Assembly: GCA_965198225.1 (NCBI GenBank)
Contig: CBDAOY010000007.1
Location: 990,045 to 1,054,044 of the forward strand
From: Terriglobia bacterium
GTDB taxonomy: Bacteria > Acidobacteriota > Terriglobia > 20CM-2-55-15
Direction: 5' to 3'
DNA length: 64,000 nucleotides
Part shown: positions 38,361 to 49,792 of the stretch, one piece after another
Layout: the number at the start of each line of letters is the position of its first letter
Position numbering within the stretch: position 1 is the stretch's first letter
Program-made: the position numbers and the translations under genes
Notes under the pieces: generated by a model
What the model was told of the DNA's origin: nothing
What the model saw: the letters and a program-made list of their open reading frames with translations, nothing else
Databases searched by the model: none

Positions 38361-39179
38361 TCACAAGTTCAGTTGATCGAGCCCCCACGCGGCGCGTTCG
38401 CGCACGCTTTCATGGACGGCTCCGTTCTGCCTCAGTTGTTCGAAAACCCCGATAGACCGCTGCTCCCGGATGTCGACCAGAAAATTGATCAATGAGATCT
38501 GGACCAGTGGCGACTCCTGCCGGGCCAGGGAATTCAAAACCCCCTCCCGAACGGAGGGCGTGTCGCTGAATTCCACGAGAGCATCGATGACGGCGAGCCT
38601 CACGTTCACGTTGGGGTCGTAGTTCAGCGTGCTCAACAGGGAAGTCAGGATCTCTTGGTTCGGTCGAGCGATTTGCGAAGTCCAGTTCACGCCACGCAGG
38701 CGCTGGCTGGCCGATTGCTGTTCGAGAAGGGAGAGGGCGACGAGCTGTCTGAGGCTCTGGACTTCTCCCTCCAGAGTGCGCAGGTCCCCGTTCGGAGCCT
38801 CTGTCACCATGAACTGCGTACCAACGACGAGTCCGACGACGAGAAGCGTCAGTGCCGAACCGAGCTGAACCAGCGGTTGGCTGGGCCACCATCCCGCTAT
38901 CCACTCATTGAGAGATTCGTGCCATCGCGGTCCTGGATGGGCGTTGGCCAGGCCTTCCTCGTAAGCCTCCAACATGGCTTCGAAACGGGCTCGAACTTTG
39001 GGTGAAGGTTCCTCCGTCGGGATCGAACCGAGCTTCGTCCAGATGCCCCTGAGGCTATCCGCCTCCTGCTGGCATGCCGAGCAGGTGTTCCAGTGAGTCT
39101 GGAGGGCTGTCTTGGAGAGCTCATCCAGACTATCGGTCAGATAATCGGGGAGTTTTTCTCTTACTTTTGCGCATTCCAT
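38361..39179 (-). CDS. anti-sigma factor (N-terminal zinc-finger HxxxCxxC, one TM helix, HEAT-like periplasmic domain)
   Basis: It has HWNTCSACQ and overlaps the ECF sigma gene by 19 nt. Confidence 0.75.
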   Translation of the reverse strand: MECAKVREKLPDYLTDSLDELSKTALQTHWNTCSACQQEADSLRGIWTKLGSIPTEEPSPKVRARFEAMLEAYEEGLANAHPGPRWHESLNEWIAGWWPSQPLVQLGSALTLLVVGLVVGTQFMVTEAPNGDLRTLEGEVQSLRQLVALSLLEQQSASQRLRGVNWTSQIARPNQEILTSLLSTLNYDPNVNVRLAVIDALVEFSDTPSVREGVLNSLARQESPLVQISLINFLVDIREQRSIGVFEQLRQNGAVHESVRERAAWGLDQLNL

Positions 39180-39745
39180 GACTTTTTCTCACCTGCAATC
39201 CTGAAATAGACCTTCCTCAGTTCCTGCGTTGCCCGGAAGACTCGAACCTTGACGGTTCCGGTGTCGCAGCCCATGACCTCGCCGATCTGATCGTATTTCA
39301 TGTTCTGAAACCGGCTCAGAATCAACACCTCGCGCTTCTCGTCGGGAAGATCCGCCAGAGCCCGTCGCAACAGCGCGGCCTCCTGCTTTTTCCCAAGGTC
39401 CTCGGGCGCGACCGACGGGCTCATCACCTCCAGCAGCGTGTCTTCGAAGTAGTACTCCCGCTTGTGCTTGTTGAGGTGGTCGATCCGGGCGTTCCGCGCG
39501 ATGTGGTACATCCACGTCGTGAACCGGCTGCTGGCTCGAAACGTAGCACGGTACTTCAGAATCCGGAAGAAGACGTCTTGAACGAGATCCTCGCTCACTT
39601 CGCGGCTGCCGGTCATCCGGATGAAGAAGTCGAACAGCTTCCTGTGATTCCGGTCAAACAGCACCCCCAGCTTGGCCACCTGCCCCTTGCTCACGTCGAG
39701 CATCAGGGCATCATCGCTGACGGAACTGACTTCCTGCGCCTTCAT
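39161..39745 (-). CDS. ECF (sigma-70 family group 4) RNA polymerase sigma factor
   Basis: It has region 2 (...DLVQDVF...) and the region 4 HTH. Confidence 0.85.
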   Translation of the reverse strand: MKAQEVSSVSDDALMLDVSKGQVAKLGVLFDRNHRKLFDFFIRMTGSREVSEDLVQDVFFRILKYRATFRASSRFTTWMYHIARNARIDHLNKHKREYYFEDTLLEVMSPSVAPEDLGKKQEAALLRRALADLPDEKREVLILSRFQNMKYDQIGEVMGCDTGTVKVRVFRATQELRKVYFRIAGEKKSWNAQK

Positions 39746-40388: not shown

Positions 40389-40424
40389 ATAAAATAGGGA
40401 CAGACTCCTGTGTCCCTATTTTAT
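40389..40424. repeat. inverted repeat ATAAAATAGGGACAG-N-CTGTGTCCCTATTTTAT
   Basis: It shares the GGGACAG...CTGTCCC core with the palindrome family. It sits at the promoter of the glycosyltransferase pair. Confidence 0.5.
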
Positions 40425-40448
40425 CGGCAACATTTTGAACCACTTAAA

Positions 40449-41150
40449 ATGCCGGCTATGAAGATCTCTGTCATCATCCCAGCCTACAACGAAGCGGACC
40501 AGATCGGGCTGACACTGGACGCCGTCCACGCCGCAGGCCTTGATGACGTTCTGGTGGTCGACGGCGGCAGTGCCGACGAAACGGTTCTGCACGCACAGGC
40601 CGCCCGGGTGACGACGATGGAGGGTCCCCGGGGAAGGGCGAGCCAGATGAACGCCGGCGCGCGAGTCAGCAGCGGGGAGGTCCTGCTGTTTCTCCACGCC
40701 GACACGCGCCTGCCGCCGGACGCGGGCCGGCTTGTCGAGAACGCCCTCGCGGACGATCGCGTCCTCGGTGGTGCCTTCCACCTGCGATTCGACTCCGGCG
40801 GCTGGCTCATGCGTCTGGTGAGCTTCCAGACCAACGTGCGTTCCTACATTCTCGCCCCCTGGGGGGATCAAGCTCTTTTCGTCCGCCGCACCTTCTTCCT
40901 CGAAACCGAAGGCTACCGGCAATGGCGCTTGATGGAGGACGTCGAAATGGCTCATCGCATCAAGAAGAACGGACGATTCACAATGATCCGGACCCCGGTG
41001 GTGACTTCCGGTCGACGATTTCGCGAGCAAGGCTTCATCCGAAACGGAGTCCGCAACCAGATGCTGATGGCGGCATACTATGCAGGCATTGCGCCGGACC
41101 GCCTGGCTCGATTCTATTCCTATGACCGGCGAACAAGAGAGGAACGCTGA
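40449..41150 (+). CDS. GT2-family glycosyltransferase, TIGR04283-like (rSAM/selenodomain-associated 'transferase 2')
   Basis: It has ISVIIPAYNEA and VLVVDGGSADET. It is paired with a DUF2064 gene with a 1-nt overlap. Confidence 0.75.
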   Translation: MPAMKISVIIPAYNEADQIGLTLDAVHAAGLDDVLVVDGGSADETVLHAQAARVTTMEGPRGRASQMNAGARVSSGEVLLFLHADTRLPPDAGRLVENALADDRVLGGAFHLRFDSGGWLMRLVSFQTNVRSYILAPWGDQALFVRRTFFLETEGYRQWRLMEDVEMAHRIKKNGRFTMIRTPVVTSGRRFREQGFIRNGVRNQMLMAAYYAGIAPDRLARFYSYDRRTREER

Positions 41151-41830
41151 TGAAGGCGCCGCTGGCGACCTCGCTTGTCATCATGGCCAAGGCGCCACGT
41201 GCCGGCCGCACGAAAACGCGCCTGTTTCCCGCTTTGACCCCTGATGAAGCCGCCGGTTTGTATCGGTCGATGTTGCTGGACACGATCGAGCGGCTCCGTT
41301 CGCTGTCCGGGTTCGAGCTCTGGCTGGCATTCACGCCGGAGGACGAACGGGCCTGGTTCGAGACGAACATCGATCCGCCGATCCCGTTGATGCCTCAGCG
41401 GGGCGACGATCTGGGCCAGCGTATGCACCACATCGTCGAAGACAGGTGCTCCGATGGAGCTGAAGCTGTGCTGCTCGTCGGAACCGACCTGCCCACGCTT
41501 CCCGCCGACTATGTGCGTCAGGCGGCGGATTTACTGCACGAGGACGACAGGGTCGTCCTCGGCCCGACCGAAGACGGGGGCTACTACCTGATCGGATTGT
41601 GCGAGCCGGACATCCGTCTGTTCGAACGAATCGAATGGAGCACGGATTCGGTCTTCCAGCAGACCGTCTGTCAGGCCGAGGCGGCAGGAAAGTCCGTCTC
41701 GACGGTTCCGTCCTGGTTCGACATCGACGAGCCTGCCGACCTCGAACGTCTCCGGAGCGCGCTCGAACACAGCGACGAGCAAACCCATCCCCCGCACACC
41801 GCGAACTTTCTGGCGTGTCTCGGAGGCTAG
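41150..41830 (+). CDS. DUF2064 / TIGR04282-like glycosyltransferase-like protein ('transferase 1')
   Basis: The N-terminal LVIMAKAPRAGRTKTRL...LYRSMLLDT is the DUF2064 signature. Confidence 0.75.
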   Translation: MKAPLATSLVIMAKAPRAGRTKTRLFPALTPDEAAGLYRSMLLDTIERLRSLSGFELWLAFTPEDERAWFETNIDPPIPLMPQRGDDLGQRMHHIVEDRCSDGAEAVLLVGTDLPTLPADYVRQAADLLHEDDRVVLGPTEDGGYYLIGLCEPDIRLFERIEWSTDSVFQQTVCQAEAAGKSVSTVPSWFDIDEPADLERLRSALEHSDEQTHPPHTANFLACLGG

Positions 41831-41869
41831 ACCATTTCGGGCCGTTCGATCGCGCCATAGCTGGCTCGA

Positions 41870-42511
41870 TCACTCCTCCGCTCCCGAATCTCCTTCAGTT
41901 GCGTCCTCCGTGAACTCCGCCAGCGAACGTCGCGCCATCTGTGTCAGCAGCACGGCGACGATCACGGTAGCACCGAGCCCGAACCAATAGAGGACGGTTT
42001 CTCCGGTCGTGGCCTCGCGTTGACCCGACAACATTTCCGCAATGTTGAAAGCGACGGACCCGATGTAGACGTACATCGCGGTGGCAGGGAACATTCCCAG
42101 AAAAGACGCCAATACATAGTCACGCAGGCGGACCCGCGTCAGGCCCAGCGAATAGTTCAGGAAGACGAAAGGAAAGACGGGCGACAGGCGGAGGAGTGTG
42201 ATCAGCTTGAATCCCGATTCTTCCGCGGCCTGGTTCAGCCGGTCGAGGAACGGCTGATTGCGGATCCGCCGCTCTATCCGGTGGCGGAACGCGGTACGAA
42301 CGAGTAGAAACGCGATCGTCGCGGCCAGGACGCTCACGGGAGAAACCAGAGCCGTTCCGAGAATCGGCCCGTATATGAATCCGGCGATCAGCGTCATCGC
42401 AGAGCCTGGAATCAGGGCGATGGTTGCAACTACGTATATAAGTGCGAAAGCGAGGGGACCGATCCAGCCCAGACCCCGGATCGTTTCGACAGCGATTATG
42501 ATCCAGTCGTC
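41870..42511 (-). CDS. DedA/TVP38/TMEM64-family membrane protein
   Basis: It has the SNARE-associated motif GFIYGP. Confidence 0.7.
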   Translation of the reverse strand, partial: DDWIIIAVETIRGLGWIGPLAFALIYVVATIALIPGSAMTLIAGFIYGPILGTALVSPVSVLAATIAFLLVRTAFRHRIERRIRNQPFLDRLNQAAEESGFKLITLLRLSPVFPFVFLNYSLGLTRVRLRDYVLASFLGMFPATAMYVYIGSVAFNIAEMLSGQREATTGETVLYWFGLGATVIVAVLLTQMARRSLAEFTEDATEGDSGAEE

Positions 42512-42623
42512 CATGAGTAAGTGGCCACCAGGCCATATCGCGCATGGCTTGCGCACGAACTCGACGTGGGCCATCGGCGTGAAGAAAGCGCCCGGCTCCA
42601 CAAATGTCGCCGGGTGCGGCCTA

Positions 42624-45077
42624 TCAGCAGCACTCGCCGGGTTCGCAACACTCAACGCTGGACAGCGCCGCGTCAGCATCCTTGGCCATCACCAGGAAAG
42701 ATCCCGCGTAAGGCTCTCGCGACAGTTTCGCAGCGGTATCGGTGCACACCTGGACGGGTTCGTTTCGGGGAAAGAGGTGGCCTTCCTCGTCGACGACCGC
42801 CTTCAGCGGGCCCAGATAGACGGCGCGCTGGCCTTCGAAGTTGCACACTCCGTTCTTCCCGAACTTGAAGCCCTGGATGATCAGCGAGTAGAAACGGTAG
42901 CCTTCGATCTCTTTCCAGAAGGTTTTCTCGACGAGCGACAGGCCGTAGAAACCCACCTGCTCGAGCATGGCGAAGTATTCATCTTCGGTCAGTGCTCCCG
43001 AGACGCACTCTCCCCACAGCCGGGGGTTGGCTTTCATGTGGTGGGGAATCTTCGATTCGGACACCGTGTCGGAGATGATCGCGCGGCCGTGATTCTTCAG
43101 AACCCGCCACATCTGCGAAAGTACGCGGCGTTTATCGGGCGAAAGGTTGATCACGCAGTTGGACGTCACGATATCGGCCTTCTGATCCTCCAGCGGAAGC
43201 TGTTCGAGGTATCCGCGCCGGAATTCGACGACGTCGTACCCGAGGGATTCGGCGACGATGCCCCGATTCCGTTCGGCCCGCTCGATCATTTCCGTCGTCA
43301 TGTCGATGCCGATCACACGACCGCTGGACCCGACGCGCTGTGCCGCGATAAAGCAGTCGATACCGCCTCCCGAACCGAGATCGACGTATGTTTCGCCCGG
43401 CTTGATGTCGGCGAACCGAATCGGGCTGCCGCAGCCGTAGGACACCTCGACGACTTCCTTCGGCAGTGCCCGAAGCTCGGCGGGGTCGTAGGCGGTCGGA
43501 CAGCACAGCGCTTCCTGAGGCTCGACGGCCGCCTGGGCGTAGAACTGGCGGACTTTCTCACGCGATCGTTCCAAGTCGACGGAGAGGACGCACGTGGAAC
43601 GGGATGTGGCGATCTCGAACCCCTCCGCTTCAATGGTTTCCATCTCAGAAAGCGATTCACCCATCGCGGCCACGACGGTCGGGGAATCGTATCCGGATGG
43701 GCCCTCATGGCTCTTGTTCTCAGAGGCGATCTGCTCGATCGCTCGGAGCAGCAGCCATTCGTGAACCTTCGAAAACGGGTCTTTTCCAAGGACGGTGCCG
43801 GAGTAGAAGAATGAATGTTCGACGTCACCGCCGCCGCACACGTAGCGCAGGTAGCATTCCTGACAGTCTTCTTTCGCGATGACGCTGGCTCGGCGCAGCG
43901 CGCGCGCGCGCGCGGATGTTTTCCAGATTTCCGCCAGCGGCTGTTCCTCGACGTTGCCCATAAGCAGTTCGGGGACACCGGCCAGCGCCGCGGAAGGATA
44001 GACGGTGCCGTCCGCGTAGACGCAGCAGCTGCTCGTGGCCGCGACCGACAGGTCCATCTTGACCCCGCGTCGGCCCTGAGCCCTTTCCCGGGCGACCTCG
44101 TAGTTGTCGAGCTCGATTCCCTTCGAAGATGCGTTTTCCAGGTATCGTTCCAGCATCTCGATGATGTCGGCGGTGAACGGACTCTGCATCTGGTCGTCTT
44201 CCAGAGCCCTGCCCTGTTTGTGGTCCCACAGCAGGTGATGACGCCGGACGCCGAGTTTGTCCAGGAACTCCGGGAATCGAGGAAGCGTGTCGAGGTTCGA
44301 GCGAGTCACGACAGTGGACACGGTCGGTTCAAACGCGGCGTCCAGCAGGGCGCCGATGCCTTCGACGGTTCGCTCGAACCCGGATCCGCGGATCGCGTGG
44401 TGGGTCTCGCGGTCGGGTCCGTCGATGCTGACCTGTAGGGCCACGTTGCCGTTCGCGGCGGCTTTGAGATTGGCCAGGGTATCGCCCCGGAAGAACATGG
44501 CGTTGGTCAGGATGACGAGTTCGCTGTCGGTGCAGATGGCCCGAACGATGTCGATCAGGTCGCGCCGTAAGAACGGCTCTCCACCGGTGATGTAAAATTG
44601 CCGAACACCCATCTGTTTCGCGTCGTCGACGATCTTCAGCCATCGATCAGTTGGAAGTCCCTCGATCCCTTTCGGGGAAGAATCCACGAGGCAGTGGGCG
44701 CAAGTCAGGTTGCAGCGGTTCGTCAGGTGCAGCCACATCTCTTGCGGCTCGTGGCGCTCGATCAACGCCCCGCGACCCGGATAGGTCGGGTGCTGGAACG
44801 GCTCGCTTCTCAGGAAGTCGGTCCGCAGTGCATGGTTGAGCAGCGTGCTGACGTCGAGCCAGGCTTCGGCCCAGTCCTTGCCCGCGTGGGACCGGTAGCG
44901 GCCCACAAGGTCCGAGACCCTCCGCTGTCCGTCGATCCAGCCGAGTATTTCGACGCCCGCTCGGTTCGTCACGATCCAGTTTGGCGCCTCGGGGTCGAAC
45001 ATCAGTCCGAATTCTCCGATCAGCCGCTCTTCGTAACGTGGGGGCGCGTGAAGTACCTGTTCAGGCAAGATAGTCAT
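42624..45077 (-). CDS. fusion protein: PqqD/RRE-like N-terminus + radical SAM (CxxxCxxC) + Cys-rich/SPASM-like domain (ArsS-like) + complete ArsM-type arsenite S-adenosylmethyltransferase
   Basis: The rSAM motif is TNRCNLTCAHC. The Cys-rich region is SSCCVYADGTVYPS...CQECYLRYVCGGGD. The ArsM half has LCCPTAY, YGCGSPI, VDLGSGGGIDCF, SNCVINLSPDK and LWGECVSGAL, with all four conserved ArsM cysteines present. The start has an AGGAGA RBS. Confidence 0.8.
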   Translation of the reverse strand: MTILPEQVLHAPPRYEERLIGEFGLMFDPEAPNWIVTNRAGVEILGWIDGQRRVSDLVGRYRSHAGKDWAEAWLDVSTLLNHALRTDFLRSEPFQHPTYPGRGALIERHEPQEMWLHLTNRCNLTCAHCLVDSSPKGIEGLPTDRWLKIVDDAKQMGVRQFYITGGEPFLRRDLIDIVRAICTDSELVILTNAMFFRGDTLANLKAAANGNVALQVSIDGPDRETHHAIRGSGFERTVEGIGALLDAAFEPTVSTVVTRSNLDTLPRFPEFLDKLGVRRHHLLWDHKQGRALEDDQMQSPFTADIIEMLERYLENASSKGIELDNYEVARERAQGRRGVKMDLSVAATSSCCVYADGTVYPSAALAGVPELLMGNVEEQPLAEIWKTSARARALRRASVIAKEDCQECYLRYVCGGGDVEHSFFYSGTVLGKDPFSKVHEWLLLRAIEQIASENKSHEGPSGYDSPTVVAAMGESLSEMETIEAEGFEIATSRSTCVLSVDLERSREKVRQFYAQAAVEPQEALCCPTAYDPAELRALPKEVVEVSYGCGSPIRFADIKPGETYVDLGSGGGIDCFIAAQRVGSSGRVIGIDMTTEMIERAERNRGIVAESLGYDVVEFRRGYLEQLPLEDQKADIVTSNCVINLSPDKRRVLSQMWRVLKNHGRAIISDTVSESKIPHHMKANPRLWGECVSGALTEDEYFAMLEQVGFYGLSLVEKTFWKEIEGYRFYSLIIQGFKFGKNGVCNFEGQRAVYLGPLKAVVDEEGHLFPRNEPVQVCTDTAAKLSREPYAGSFLVMAKDADAALSSVECCEPGECC

Positions 45078-45254: not shown

Positions 45255-45588
45255 TTATCCCGGGCGTCGACGCATCTCTTCCCGGGTGATGAATCCATCA
45301 TCGTCCGCGTCGAGGCGGTCGAAGGCCTCAGTCGGTCGGGTCCACTCGTCACGAGAAACCTTGCCGTCGCCGTCTTCATCCATCTGGAGCATCGCGGCTC
45401 CCCGGCCACGTCCGCCTCTGCCCGGGCGGGAGTTCTGCATCTCTTCGAGAGTGATGAAGCCGTCGCCATCGGCGTCCATGGTCTCGAACATCTGCGCGGG
45501 ACCCGGAAACTCCTGCTGCGACACGCGTCCATCGCCATCGCTGTCGAGCCCCTGGAAACGGGCTTGAGGGTCTGCGCCTCTTCCGCCT
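45255..45588 (-). repeat. downstream copy of an exact ~310-bp tandem duplication. It encodes a now out-of-phase extra EF-hand segment (...DADDDGFITREEMRRRPG*).
   Basis: Region 45301-45590 is 100% identical to 45611-45900. At the junction the upstream copy carries 2-bp and 7-bp deletions, which create a TAG stop at 45589-45591. Confidence 0.7.
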
Positions 45589-46746
45589 CTATCCCGGGCG
45601 TCGCCATCTCTTCCCGAATCCATCATCGTCCGCGTCGAGGCGGTCGAAGGCCTCAGTCGGTCGGGTCCACTCGTCACGAGAAACCTTGCCGTCGCCGTCT
45701 TCATCCATCTGGAGCATCGCGGCTCCCCGGCCACGTCCGCCTCTGCCCGGGCGGGAGTTCTGCATCTCTTCGAGAGTGATGAAGCCGTCGCCATCGGCGT
45801 CCATGGTCTCGAACATCTGCGCGGGACCCGGAAACTCCTGCTGCGACACGCGTCCATCGCCATCGCTGTCGAGCCCCTGGAAACGGGCTTGAGGGTCTGC
45901 GCCTCTTCCGCCTCTGCCGCGGCCGCCCCCGAATTGCCGCTGGATTTCGTCACGAGCGAGGAGACCATCATCGTTTCGATCGAGCCGGTCGAACGTCTCG
46001 CCGTCGCCCGTCCACTCTTCCCGTGAGATTGTACCGTCCTCGTTCGTGTCCATGACGCCCATACCGCCCGCAGTCCCGGGCCTCTGCCCCGGCCGAGGGC
46101 GCATACCACGCATGCCGCGGCCGCGACGCTGTCCCTGTTCCTGTCCGTAGGCGGTGATCTCCCCTCTGAGAGCGACCTCGAGCGCTGCCCTGGCTTCGGG
46201 GACATCGAACCCGGCCGGCCCGGGGCGTCCCTTGAAGGCGATGGTGCCGTCGGAGCCCACGACATAGATCCGGTCGGGAAACGCGGCGTACGCATTCGCC
46301 GTCCGGTCGTCGATCTTGTCCAGAATGGTCGGCATCGAGATGTCCAAGGCGGTCGTACAGATGTTGGCTGCTTCCTGGCGCTGCTCGTCGGTTTTGGCTT
46401 GTTCGATCAGGATGCCGTCGATAACATTCGCCGCTCCGAGGTTGCCGTCGGTGGGATGCGCTTCTCGAATGTAGACGAAGAAGAAATTGGCGCGGTCCTT
46501 GTAAGCCTGGTACCAGTTTTCGATGTCCACGACATCGCGGCGGAACGGGCCTCAGGTATAGCTGGCGAAGATCAGCGCGGTCGGTCTGCCCGTCATCTCA
46601 GAAAGCGTAATCTTTTGCTTTCCGTCTTTTGTACTGAGCGTGAAATCAGGCGCCGTATCTCCAGGCGTGGGGCCGCCGCCTCGCCGCTGGGCCGTGGCAG
46701 GGCTCACCAGGACGAGGACCAATAACGCAGACGCGAATGTTCTCAT
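45589..46746 (-). CDS. selenoprotein: iodothyronine-deiodinase-like thioredoxin-fold domain (Sec encoded by UGA at 46552-46554) fused to a C-terminal EF-hand repeat array; secreted
   Basis: It has a signal peptide (MRTFASALLVLVLVSPATAQ) with a GGAGGA RBS. APDFTL...RPTALIFASYT-[TGA]-GPFRRD...FFFVYIREAHPTDG matches the deiodinase motifs FGSxT-U-PPF and FLxVYIxEAHPSDGW. The hairpin GAUGUC-GUGG-GACAUC lies 15 nt after the UGA. There are at least six DxDxDG EF-hand loops. Confidence 0.7.
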
Positions 46747-47558: not shown

Positions 47559-47864
47559 ATGCCTCGAAACTACATGACATATCCGTCCGGTCTGGTCCTG
47601 CAGGCAATCGCTTCGGGGCATCGGTATGGTTTCGATGTGATGGATGTGACGGGATTGCCGAGTGGTACGGTTTACCCGGCACTTCGGAAGCTGGAACGAG
47701 AGGGCTATGTCCGTTCCAGGTGGGAAGGCGAAGATGTGGCCCGCCAGGCAGGGCGTCCACCGCGGCGTTACTACGAGGTTAGCGGCCCTGGCTCGGCGGC
47801 CTTGACCCAGCTGCTGAAACGGTTTCCAGGACTGGCCCGGGCCCTTGCCGCGGAGGTCTTGTGA
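47559..47864 (+). CDS. PadR-family transcriptional regulator
   Basis: It has the winged-helix motif GYDV...GTVYPALRKLEREGYV. Confidence 0.85.
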   Translation: MPRNYMTYPSGLVLQAIASGHRYGFDVMDVTGLPSGTVYPALRKLEREGYVRSRWEGEDVARQAGRPPRRYYEVSGPGSAALTQLLKRFPGLARALAAEVL

Positions 47865-48452
47865 GGTGGGCAGGCGGCGAGCGGTCTCTCCGCGTCTGCC
47901 TGTTGTGGATTCGCGCTCTGTCGTTCCTCGTCCCGCCCCCGGGCCGGGACGAATGGATGCGGGAGTGGCGTGGCGAGCTTCTGCATCACTGGAGTGAGTT
48001 CGAGACAGGAGTTCAAAAGTCCCGTGCTGCAAGATTCGATTTGTTCCTACATTCGATGGGCGCCTTGCCTGATGCACTGTGTCTGCTGCGTCAGGAGTGG
48101 AGACTGGACATGCTGATGCAGGATCTGACCTATGCGGTACGGACGCTCGGCGCTCGACCGGGCTTCACCTTCGTAGTGATTTTCATTCTGGCGCTGGGTA
48201 TCGGGGCCAACACCGTCGTGTTCAGCGTCGTCGATGCCGTCCTGTTTCGACCCCTACCGTTTCCCGAGCCGGAGAGGCTGGTTGCGATCTGGGACGAAAA
48301 CACCCAAAAGTCGATGCTTCGTCAGGGTCCGGCGCCCGGCAATCTGCTGGACTGGCGTGACCAGTCACGGGTGTTCGATGGTATCGGAGCCTGGTACGCG
48401 GGCGAGCCCAGGACTGTGCGCGACGAGTCCAGTGCGGAGAAAGTGTCCGCCA
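47861..48452 (+). pseudogene. ADOP-type (MacB-like/FtsX) permease, N-terminal ~195 aa only; interrupted by a mobile element
   Basis: DLTYAVRTLGARPGFTFVVIFILALGIGANTVVFSVVDAVLFRPLPFPEPERLVAIWDE is the classic ADOP N-terminus. At ~48450 the reading frame runs into AT-rich foreign DNA and stops (..SATIGFYYV*). Confidence 0.7.
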
Positions 48453-48613
48453 CTATAGGATTTTATTATGTCTAATAATATCCATAAGTCTTATTTATAT
48501 CAACAGTATATCGTCCTAGACAATCCAGCGCCGTCTGGTATAATCCAAGCCTGTTGGGGGATATATTGGGGGAGTGCTGGAGTGCCTCTGCCCCATCGGT
48601 CGAGGGCTCTGCA

Positions 48614-49792
48614 ATGGCCATTCACAAACTCTCCCAACGCAAGGTAGACACCGCCGGTCCCGGCAAATACGAAGACGGCGGCGGGCTCCGCTTGGTGGTG
48701 TCCAATTCAGGCGCCAGGAGATGGGTCCTGCGTTACACCGTCCACGGCAAACGCCGGGAAATGGGTCTGGGCCGTTATCCCGATGTCGGGTTGGCCGATG
48801 CCCGCACGCAAGCGCTACGGCACCGGAGGCAGTTGGCGACGGGCGTAGATCCCATCGCAGCCCGCCGGGCGGCCCCGGAGACGCTACCCACCTTCACCAT
48901 CTGCGCCGCCCGGTATATCCGGGCCCATCGACGGAGTTGGCACAATGCCAAGCACGCGCGGCAATGGGTCCGGAGCCTGAAGACCTATGCCCGGCCCGTC
49001 ATCGGGGCCAAACGGGTCGACGCCATTGAGACTGAAGACATTGTAAAGATACTCTCTTCGATCTGGAACACCAAGACCGAAACGGCCAAGCGCGTGCAGG
49101 GGCGCATCGAAAATGTCCTGGACTTCGCCGCCGCGCACCAATACTGCGGTCCCCTGAACCCGGCCCGCTGGCGGGGCCATCTGGACAAGTTGCTCCCGAA
49201 GCCCTCCCGGGTGAAGCAAGTCACCCACCACCCGGCCATGCCGTATCCCGAGGTGGCGGACTTCCTGCAGGAGCTGTCCGGACACCGGAGTGTATCGGCG
49301 CAGGCGCTGCGGTTTTTGATCCTGACCGCCACGCGCACCAGTGAAGTCTTAGAGGCGCAGTGGCCGGAAATCGATCGGACCGCCGGTATATGGATCCTTC
49401 CCGCCTCCCGGATGAAAGCCCGACGGGAACATCGAGTTCCCTTATCGGATGCGACCCTGGCGGTTCTGGAAGACCTACCCCGCATGGCAGGCCACCCGTA
49501 TGTCTTCGCCGGATCTCGCCACGGACGCCCTCTGTCGAACATGGCCCTACTGAAATTGATGCGAGACATGGGATATTGCGTTGAGGGTTCCCGGGCTCAC
49601 TACGTGCCGCATGGATTTCGCTCCAGTTTTCGGGATTGGTCCGGCGAGGTGTCGAGCTTCCCGCGAGAAGTTGCGGAAATGGCCTTGGCCCACGTGGTGG
49701 AGAACAAGGTGGAAGCGGCCTACCGGCGGGGGGATCTGTTCGCCAAACGGCGCAGCATGATGCAGGCCTGGGCCGACTACCTCAAGAAGTAG
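48614..49792 (+). CDS. tyrosine-type site-specific integrase, phage P4-like (DUF4102 arm-binding N-terminus)
   Basis: It has KLSQRKVDTAGPGKYEDGGGLRLVV and the catalytic R...HGFRSSF...Y motifs. Confidence 0.85.
   Translation: MAIHKLSQRKVDTAGPGKYEDGGGLRLVVSNSGARRWVLRYTVHGKRREMGLGRYPDVGLADARTQALRHRRQLATGVDPIAARRAAPETLPTFTICAARYIRAHRRSWHNAKHARQWVRSLKTYARPVIGAKRVDAIETEDIVKILSSIWNTKTETAKRVQGRIENVLDFAAAHQYCGPLNPARWRGHLDKLLPKPSRVKQVTHHPAMPYPEVADFLQELSGHRSVSAQALRFLILTATRTSEVLEAQWPEIDRTAGIWILPASRMKARREHRVPLSDATLAVLEDLPRMAGHPYVFAGSRHGRPLSNMALLKLMRDMGYCVEGSRAHYVPHGFRSSFRDWSGEVSSFPREVAEMALAHVVENKVEAAYRRGDLFAKRRSMMQAWADYLKK

Follow-up and report, generated by a model that had tools for sequence, protein, structure and literature searches.

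What does a bacterium make with a single polypeptide that joins an enzyme of the radical S-adenosylmethionine (SAM) type to an arsenite methyltransferase? The question is raised by an 817-aa open reading frame (ORF) in a 64-kb stretch of DNA from a Terriglobia bacterium (contig CBDAOY010000007.1; ‘the window’ below means this whole stretch). A first-pass annotation, made from the letters of the window alone, read the ORF as an ArsS-like radical SAM enzyme fused to the methyltransferase ArsM and proposed an arsenosugar-type locus. Our analysis keeps the second part of that reading and alters the first: most likely, what is new here is an ArsS-type organoarsenical gene cluster, its function predicted, that uses a non-orthologous, ArsM-fused radical SAM enzyme.

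As far as we found, ArsS and ArsL are the only radical SAM enzymes known to form carbon-arsenic bonds. ArsS adds a 5'-deoxyadenosyl radical to dimethylated trivalent arsenic, DMAs(III), in a redox-neutral reaction that gives dimethylarsinoyl-adenosine (PMC13598754). The arsS and arsM genes of Synechocystis are neighbours and are co-transcribed (bioRxiv 10.1101/2022.09.23.509062). ArsL is reported to be a noncanonical radical SAM enzyme that transfers a 3-amino-3-carboxypropyl group (bioRxiv 10.1101/2024.02.01.577332).

The C-terminal half resembles a complete ArsM

The ORF joins the RRE-like, radical SAM, SPASM-like and ArsM segments named in the first-pass annotation, and all of the motifs quoted there are present. 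We modelled the protein with AlphaFold2 on 23 homologues (predicted local distance difference test, pLDDT, 84.4; predicted template modelling score 0.82). In Foldseek comparisons with the PDB, the model falls into two halves that match separately.

The C-terminal half matches characterized arsenite methyltransferases by both sequence and fold. Using phmmer, we obtained E-values of 4e-39 for CrArsM (over residues 498-797), 1e-35 for AS3MT and 1.5e-30 for CmArsM. Foldseek matched this half to structures of CmArsM, CrArsM and human AS3MT (4fs8, 5evj, 8xt7), with E-values of about 1e-21 and 28-35% identity over ~300 columns. Both searches indicate that the three-domain ArsM fold is present, including its C-terminal domain. 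Among family models, Methyltransf_31 scores 118 bits (residues 558-707) and the ArsM model NF008823 (PRK11873) covers residues 524-719 with 241.8 bits, falling slightly short of its 263-bit cutoff. On this ArsM model, the ArsM-type methyltransferase that accompanies a true ArsS reaches only 177 bits.

To gauge conservation, we counted cysteines across 184 non-identical full-length homologues of the fusion. The CC motif (residues 525-526) is accompanied by YGCG, SNCVINL and WGEC motifs, and C525, C526, C549, C641 and C691 are each found in 184/184 sequences. As(III) methylation by ArsM is established. As judged from these matches, the C-terminal half is a complete ArsM-type methyltransferase, as first proposed, and is predicted to methylate As(III).

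Beyond the ArsM fold, the protein ends in a short Cys-rich tail. Its last two residues are kept almost throughout the family (C816 in 180/184 and C817 in 182/184), and nearly all complete fusion genes in the loci described below end in Cys-Cys followed by the stop codon. The ArsM-type partner of ArsS in Acinetobacter portensis likewise ends in ...GDCC. Inspection of the stop codons and downstream frames of 80 fusion loci revealed no selenocysteine variants.

The radical SAM half and ArsS are of different families

The N-terminal half includes a radical SAM core (PF04055, residues 118-257, 79.5 bits against a gathering score of 29.5). Like ArsS, it has a canonical CX3CX2C cluster site, which lies within the motif CNLTCAHC (residues 122-129) and whose cysteines C122, C126 and C129 are present in 184/184 fusions.

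The resemblance to ArsS does not extend much further. TIGR04167, the ArsS model (cutoff 300 bits), was not among the 25 best of 100 NCBIfam matches, the weakest of these 25 scoring 71 bits; they are SPASM-type maturases of peptides or cofactors, StsB, Rv1681, AhbD, NirJ2, MftC and PqqE among them, and all score far below their cutoffs. As a control, the A. portensis ArsS scores 471 bits on TIGR04167. BLASTP alignments of ArsS to the fusion (~25-28% identity) are confined to the surroundings of the cluster motif. Aligning the N-terminal half of the family to three ArsS sequences with hhalign recovered 144 core columns at 20% identity, which pair ArsS residues 18-164 with fusion residues 108-251 and leave ArsS residues 165-322 unaligned. 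The fusion has RRE-like and SPASM-like domains where ArsS has a C-terminal Cys/Sec-rich domain, and none of the 12 Pfam families found on the fusion matches that ArsS domain. By these comparisons the radical half is of a different family from ArsS, with homology limited to the core, and ‘ArsS-like’ is not an apt description of it.

We recovered the Cys-rich SPASM-like domain of the first-pass annotation (PF13186, residues 348-409, 32.5 bits against a gathering score of 21.5; matched in 22/23 family members). The full seven-Cys SPASM motif, which holds two auxiliary [4Fe-4S] clusters, is incomplete: the window protein has four candidate cluster cysteines. Of these, C352 is kept in 177/184 fusions, and C405, C408 and C414 are retained in 109/184 (59%) and lost in the remaining 41%. 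Going by the residues present, the SPASM-like cysteines are enough for one auxiliary cluster at most. The linker that follows contains another cysteine, C496, found in 184/184 fusions. Its motif also occurs in ArsM-less relatives of the radical SAM clade, two of which (P0256, P0252) carry ...HCACVLS/A....

At the N-terminus, the model shows the topology of a RRE/PqqD-like domain at a pLDDT of about 90 (DSSP elements E16-20, E23-28, E33-37, H39-47, H54-65 and H69-85). The Pfam PqqD match of the window protein (residues 26-86) is 17.3 bits, below the gathering score of 23.4; 8/23 family members match the model at E <= 0.01, the best at 6e-8, and NCBI names some fusion members ‘PqqD family peptide modification chaperone’. 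The best structural matches of residues 1-480 are SkfB, CteB, SuiB, PqqE, BlsE and anSME (Foldseek E-values 1e-13 to 1e-18), and the CteB match (479 columns, TM-score 0.71) spans the RRE-like region.

The fusion shares its order of RRE-like, radical SAM and SPASM-like domains with maturases of ribosomally synthesized and post-translationally modified peptides (RiPPs) and related enzymes (CteB 5WGG, SuiB 5V1Q, SkfB 6EFN, PqqE 6C8V). It differs from them in its fusion to ArsM, its incomplete seven-Cys motif and its genomic setting, one of metalloid and sugar-transferase genes without a precursor peptide gene; sequence identity to these structures is only 14-22%. We clustered all ORFs of 20-110 aa within 1.5 kb of 80 fusion genes and found only low-complexity ORFs or ORFs antisense to a neighbouring gene. 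The RRE-like segment of the first-pass annotation is probably present, and the peptide-modifying role it might have signalled finds no conserved precursor peptide gene near the fusion.

Both halves are conserved across a widespread fusion family

We found no description of a radical SAM-ArsM fusion in the literature and no curated family for it, and no NCBIfam model reaches its cutoff on the protein. A protein search retrieved at least 120 full-length fusions (815-866 aa, 45-92% identity), all with generic names. Scanning species-representative genomes, we identified 80 full-length fusion loci, in at least 80 species-level genomes from a dozen or more phyla. The carriers include Acidobacteriota, Nitrospirota (including Ca. 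Manganitrophus), anammox Planctomycetota, Gemmatimonadota, Elusimicrobiota and Chloroflexota, as well as Myxococcota, Thermodesulfobacteriota, Spirochaetia, Nitrospinota, Omnitrophota and Wallbacteria. At 95% identity, the nearest homologue of the window protein is encoded by a Terriglobia (Acidobacteriota) metagenome-assembled genome (locus L001).

A chance fusion or a misassembly was considered and rejected, because the 184 homologues conserve both halves. The same conservation bears out the claim that the domains of two activities are covalently joined.

To survey the architectures in which the radical SAM clade occurs, we searched the N-terminal half against 1.84 billion representative sequences using HMMER and scanned the hits with Pfam. 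The clade is also found in a shorter RRE-radical SAM-SPASM-ArsM form; in a reverse-order ArsM-radical SAM-SPASM form of about 680-710 aa (P0271, P0273) that keeps the ArsM cysteines; in a form with a non-ArsM methyltransferase; and in a radical SAM-SPASM-methyltransferase-DUF5714 form of about 980-1080 aa (P0266, P0276, P0288). DUF5714 is Cys-rich, and a literature search for it returned nothing. Forms of ~500 aa may be standalone genes or fragments. Since the radical SAM clade and ArsM are fused in both orders, we argue that they form a functional pair.

Two loci have the fusion divided between a pair of ORFs, with the break at the SPASM region in L047 and behind the radical SAM core in L075. 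Neither is a clean split version; a frameshift, a pseudogene or a sequencing error may account for the break.

Fusion loci carry the accessory genes of ArsS operons

We clustered all ORFs of the 80 fusion loci, annotated the recurrent families and counted them by profile searches in 79 loci. A TIGR04283-type family 2 glycosyltransferase (GT2), including fused forms, is present in 32/79 loci (22 by stricter BLASTP), and a PiT/PHO4-family permease, often abutting the fusion, in 31/79. A DedA/VTT gene, in most cases co-oriented with the fusion, was found in 29-30 of ~80 loci. Also recurrent are TIGR04282/DUF2064 (about 25/79; range 21-26, and 21 by BLASTP), a MerA-like flavin adenine dinucleotide (FAD) disulfide oxidoreductase (NF004991; 22/79) and DUF547 (15/79). 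At least one of these six families lies within 10 kb of the fusion in 61/79 loci, and nine loci have five or six. In L066, for example, PiT, fusion, GT2, DUF2064, DUF547, DedA and FAD oxidoreductase genes all lie on one strand. None of the fusion loci contains an ArsS-type gene.

For comparison, we searched PGAP-annotated plasmids with the window GT2 protein and examined three ArsS loci. On plasmid pJNE5-X3_NDM-1 of A. portensis (NZ_CP096121.1), an operon encodes ArsS, a TVP38(DedA)/FAD oxidoreductase, DUF547, TIGR04283, TIGR04282, an ArsM-type methyltransferase (with CC, YGCG, SNCVINL and GEC motifs) and PiT. An S-methyl-5'-thioadenosine phosphorylase (MTAP) gene lies alongside, with thioredoxin, CcdA and sigma-factor genes nearby. 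Overlapping gene sets surround arsS on Burkholderia glumae bglu_2p and on a Hymenobacter volaticus plasmid.

The A. portensis proteins have orthologue-level matches (34-47% identity) among the ORFs of 15 to 29 fusion loci: PiT at 43-47% in 29 loci, the DedA/FAD oxidoreductase at 39-41% in 17 and DUF547 at 35-40% in 15, with GT2 matched in 22 and DUF2064 in 21. The gene content of the A. portensis operon matches that of the fullest fusion loci one for one; the sole difference is that ArsS plus ArsM are replaced by the fusion. More generally, bacterial ArsS loci and the fusion family share TIGR04283, TIGR04282, DedA, FAD oxidoreductase, DUF547 and PiT. Because this accessory set equals that of the ArsS operon, the arsenosugar-type reading of the fusion locus gains support, and synteny with ArsS loci sustains the first-pass assignment to that type.

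MTAP is encoded in 2/3 ArsS loci (L092 15524-16387; L090 11033-11914) and in only 2/80 fusion loci (L045 5973-6854; L067 5791-6642). We consider MTAP a candidate for removing adenine from an adenosyl-arsenical.

Two further features recur in the fusion loci. Seven (L008, L011, L055, L057, L058, L062, L064) carry a second radical SAM gene, related to the tetraether lipid synthase Tes and to TrsS, 1.2-3.5 kb downstream; it scores 306 bits on the Tes model and 204 bits on the TrsS model, both below cutoff. The B. glumae ArsS locus has a more distant TrsS-like gene beside DUF547 (L090 562-1959). The recurrence of such genes may hint at a lipid-linked product. Some fusion loci also contain GT87 membrane transferases.

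Coupling of ArsM to a radical SAM enzyme has precedents. In Synechocystis sp. PCC 6803, ArsM and ArsS are coupled as adjacent genes, which in the family described here are fused. In the arsinothricin system (arsQML of Burkholderia gladioli), ArsL is a second radical SAM enzyme that forms carbon-arsenic bonds and works with an ArsM. The ArsM half of the fusion, with its C-terminal domain, scores 211 bits on the arsinothricin ArsM model NF040538, far below the cutoff of 500. Unlike ArsL, the window protein has a SPASM-type fold and ArsS-type neighbours. Together, the fusion family and its context suggest a second, undescribed bacterial route to carbon-arsenic compounds.

A proposed pathway and its alternatives

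On balance, we lean toward the fusion being a bifunctional organoarsenical synthase, in which a non-orthologous replacement of ArsS is fused to its ArsM partner. The chemistry that we infer would begin at the ArsM half, which would bind As(III) on its invariant cysteines and use SAM to methylate it, giving MAs(III) or DMAs(III). The trivalent methylarsenical would then be handed directly to the radical SAM half. There, cleavage of a second SAM would produce a 5'-deoxyadenosyl radical that adds to arsenic as in ArsS, giving dimethylarsinoyl-adenosine; this step would be redox-neutral and would require no auxiliary cluster. Such a redox-neutral addition, reported for ArsS (PMC13598754), is consistent with the absence of the SPASM cluster cysteines from 41% of the family. 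Conversion of the adenosyl-arsenical to a riboside, an arsenosugar-type product, would next fall to a nucleoside phosphorylase or hydrolase together with the TIGR04282 protein, which is CofC-like, and the TIGR04283 glycosyltransferase. The presence of MTAP in ArsS loci suggests that phosphorolysis would precede CofC-like nucleotidyl transfer and transfer by the GT2 enzyme. DedA would handle a membrane step of the product.

Several observations weigh against this pathway. The radical half has, by the comparisons above, no homology to ArsS outside the core, and its closest relatives modify peptides or cofactors. Its RRE-like domain is well conserved and has no role in the pathway as drawn. The scarcity of MTAP in fusion loci counts in the same direction, as does the window itself, whose accessory genes are limited to GT2, DUF2064 and DedA; the A. 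portensis operon differs from it in having separate ArsS and ArsM-type genes and an adjacent MTAP gene. Finally, five sampled relatives of the GT2 gene lie far from any ArsS or fusion gene. Because GT2 relatives often sit away from ArsS, the ‘arsenosugar’ label on TIGR04282 and TIGR04283 is itself a prediction.

Some of these points would be accommodated if the pathway were the same and the radical chemistry different. In such a scheme the radical half would act on the arsenical made by ArsM without adenosylation, for example by hydrogen abstraction to form a C-As or C-C bond with a lipid or sugar acceptor, and the product would be an organoarsenical other than that of ArsS, for instance an arsenolipid. 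The family difference from ArsS, the four possible auxiliary-cluster cysteines in 59% of the family, the near absence of MTAP, the Tes/TrsS-like radical SAM genes and GT87 membrane transferases of some loci, and the fact that DedA is a membrane protein all favor it. We nevertheless think it unlikely: with the same accessory genes as ArsS loci, the same intermediate is the simplest assumption, and 41% of the family does without the auxiliary cysteines. Speculatively, the RRE-like domain, rather than being a relic, might bind the Cys-rich ArsM tail. If it recognized that tail (...CC-x-P-x3-CC-stop) as a carrier peptide, the tail could deliver thiolate-bound methylated As(III) to the radical SAM active site, and a SPASM-type enzyme would then yield a novel organoarsenical rather than the product of ArsS. 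We regard this scheme as doubtful; if true, it would provide the first RRE serving a small-molecule metalloid pathway.

The protein might instead be a peptide or protein maturase, in which the RRE-like domain recruits a peptide, the radical SAM/SPASM part modifies that peptide and the ArsM-like half methylates it or loads it with a metalloid. Candidates for the peptide would be a precursor encoded elsewhere and the Cys-rich C-terminal tail, either the protein's own or that of a partner ArsM. The high-confidence RRE topology, the structural matches to SkfB, CteB and SuiB, the chaperone name given to some members by NCBI and the nearly universal terminal CC speak for such a maturase. RiPP maturases with SPASM domains are understood to need their SPASM cluster cysteines, which are gone in 41% of fusion members. 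Moreover, the As(III)-binding cysteines of the ArsM half are all invariant, the 1.5 kb on either side of the fusion contain no conserved small ORF in the 80 loci, and the genes conserved nearby encode transporters, transferases and redox enzymes rather than proteases or RiPP exporters. A maturase is thus quite improbable. We give still less credence to a pathway for a metalloid or chalcogen other than arsenic (Sb, Se or Te), or for detoxification only, in which PiT, DedA and the FAD reductase would handle a different oxyanion. A link between DedA proteins and selenite uptake has been reported, the best-scoring model for the PiT neighbours is that of a PiT-family sulfate permease, a likely selenoprotein gene lies directly upstream of the fusion in the window lineage, and the TIGR0428x models were first defined as ‘selenodomain-associated’; JGI still annotates relatives of the GT2 gene as ‘rSAM/selenodomain-associated transferase 2’. 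These hints are set against an ArsM half in which every As(III)-binding cysteine of characterized ArsM/AS3MT enzymes is retained and against the substrate of ArsS, the only characterized enzyme of such a neighbourhood, which is DMAs(III).

Organization of the locus in the window

The ORF list of the 64-kb window places all four genes of the locus where the first-pass annotation had put them (Table 1). Three points concern their arrangement. The GT2 and DUF2064 genes, described there as upstream of the fusion, are actually encoded on the other strand and converge on the fusion-DedA pair; the GT2 stop codon overlaps the DUF2064 start at 41150, and both products pass their curated models. The DedA gene, adjacent as claimed, is directly downstream of the fusion on the same strand, with its true start probably inside the ORF near 42514, and its product shares 37% identity with the DedA portion of the A. 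portensis DedA/FAD oxidoreductase. The fusion is the one radical SAM gene in the window, with no second radical SAM or ArsS-type gene in the 64 kb. Of the two outcomes that the first-pass annotation had named as telling against its proposal, we found one, a radical half that scores best on families other than ArsS, and not the other, failure of the transferases on their models.

Table 1. Features of the locus and its surroundings in the window.
Feature	Residues	Position	Strand	Details
Anti-sigma factor with HEAT repeats		38361-39179	(-)	Pfam zf-HC2; divergent from GT2 gene
Extracytoplasmic function (ECF) sigma factor		39161-39745	(-)	Pfam Sigma70_r2, Sigma70_r4_2; divergent from GT2 gene
TIGR04283-family GT2 glycosyltransferase		40410-41150	(+)	TIGR04283 238.9 bits, cutoff 182; probable start 40449
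TIGR04282/DUF2064 CofC-like putative nucleotidyltransferase		41150-41830	(+)	TIGR04282 195.6 bits, cutoff 134; PF09837 117 bits
DedA/VTT (TVP38/TMEM64) membrane protein		41870-42679	(-)	PF09335 97.7 bits
Fusion gene (817 aa)		42624-45077	(-)	RRE-like, radical SAM, SPASM-like, linker, ArsM-type methyltransferase
Fusion: flexible Cys-rich tail	798-817	42627-42686	(-)	...CCEPGECC then stop; pLDDT below 50
Fusion: ArsM-type As(III) SAM methyltransferase	498-797	42687-43586	(-)	CC motif, Rossmann domain, As-binding cysteines, C-terminal domain
Fusion: linker	436-497	43587-43772	(-)	Invariant C496 in motif S-x-C-V-L-S
Fusion: SPASM-like domain	340-435	43773-44060	(-)	C352 and CX2CX5C (C405, C408, C414)
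Fusion: radical SAM core	113-320	44118-44741	(-)	CX3CX2C at C122/C126/C129; GGE motif (ITGGEPF)
Fusion: RRE/PqqD-like winged-helix domain	16-85	44823-45032	(-)	Three strands, then three helices
Deiodinase-like/EF-hand gene		45589-46746	(-)	PF00837 85.5 bits
ORF without family match		47861-48475		Precedes integrase gene
Tyrosine integrase		48554-49792		Arm-DNA-binding, Phage_int_M and Phage_integrase domains

A promoter and terminator scan performed no better on the locus than on shuffled sequence, with one weak -35/-10 match ~75 bp upstream of the fusion start. The ECF sigma/anti-sigma pair is a possible regulator of the locus, though the link is weak: an ECF sigma cluster is found in 15 fusion loci, and the ArsS loci of B. 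glumae and A. portensis likewise contain sigma and zf-HC2 genes. An ECF sigma factor as a regulator common to ArsS loci was considered and rejected, as the sigma factors are ~23% identical, a generic similarity.

The gene directly upstream of the fusion encodes a signal peptide, a thioredoxin fold similar to that of iodothyronine deiodinases and EF-hand repeats. An in-frame TGA (46552-46554) occupies the active-site position (IFASYT-TGA-GPFR). L001 (94% identity) and L002 (74%) retain this TGA together with the sequence on either side of it, so the gene very likely encodes a selenoprotein. A selenocysteine insertion sequence (SECIS) fold was looked for after the TGA; the hairpin there, which starts 15 nt downstream, is no more stable than those of shuffled sequences (z = 0.31). 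The 3' part of the gene contains a perfect tandem duplication (45291-45915; period 325 bp, 1.9 copies, 100% identical). The period is not divisible by three, so one EF-hand peptide is read in two different frames (ORFs 45255-46295 and 45589-46530). The duplication may be a recent event or an assembly artefact.

Farther along, downstream of the locus, the integrase gene and the ORF that precedes it (47861-49792) may mark an integrated element. We found no tRNA gene between 46000 and 52000. GC content rises to as much as 0.675 at 56-58 kb.

Implications

If the fusion is the bifunctional synthase that we favor, it would be a third, structurally unrelated solution to carbon-arsenic bond formation, and one that is hard-wired to ArsM. 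A single polypeptide of this kind would provide a system for studying how toxic trivalent methylarsenicals are handed over between active sites, and it raises the question of what RRE domains do outside peptide natural products. We know of no tested function for the accessory set of PiT, DedA, FAD reductase, DUF547, TIGR04282 and TIGR04283 proteins; fusion loci and ArsS loci together define that set as one testable module.

The carriers of the fusion include lineages of soil, groundwater and sediment, among them Acidobacteriota, Nitrospirota, anammox Planctomycetota, Gemmatimonadota and Elusimicrobia, and we know of no reports of arsenosugar or arsenolipid production in these groups. If the proposed function is correct, the fusion would lengthen the list of organisms able to feed complex organoarsenicals into food webs and soils.

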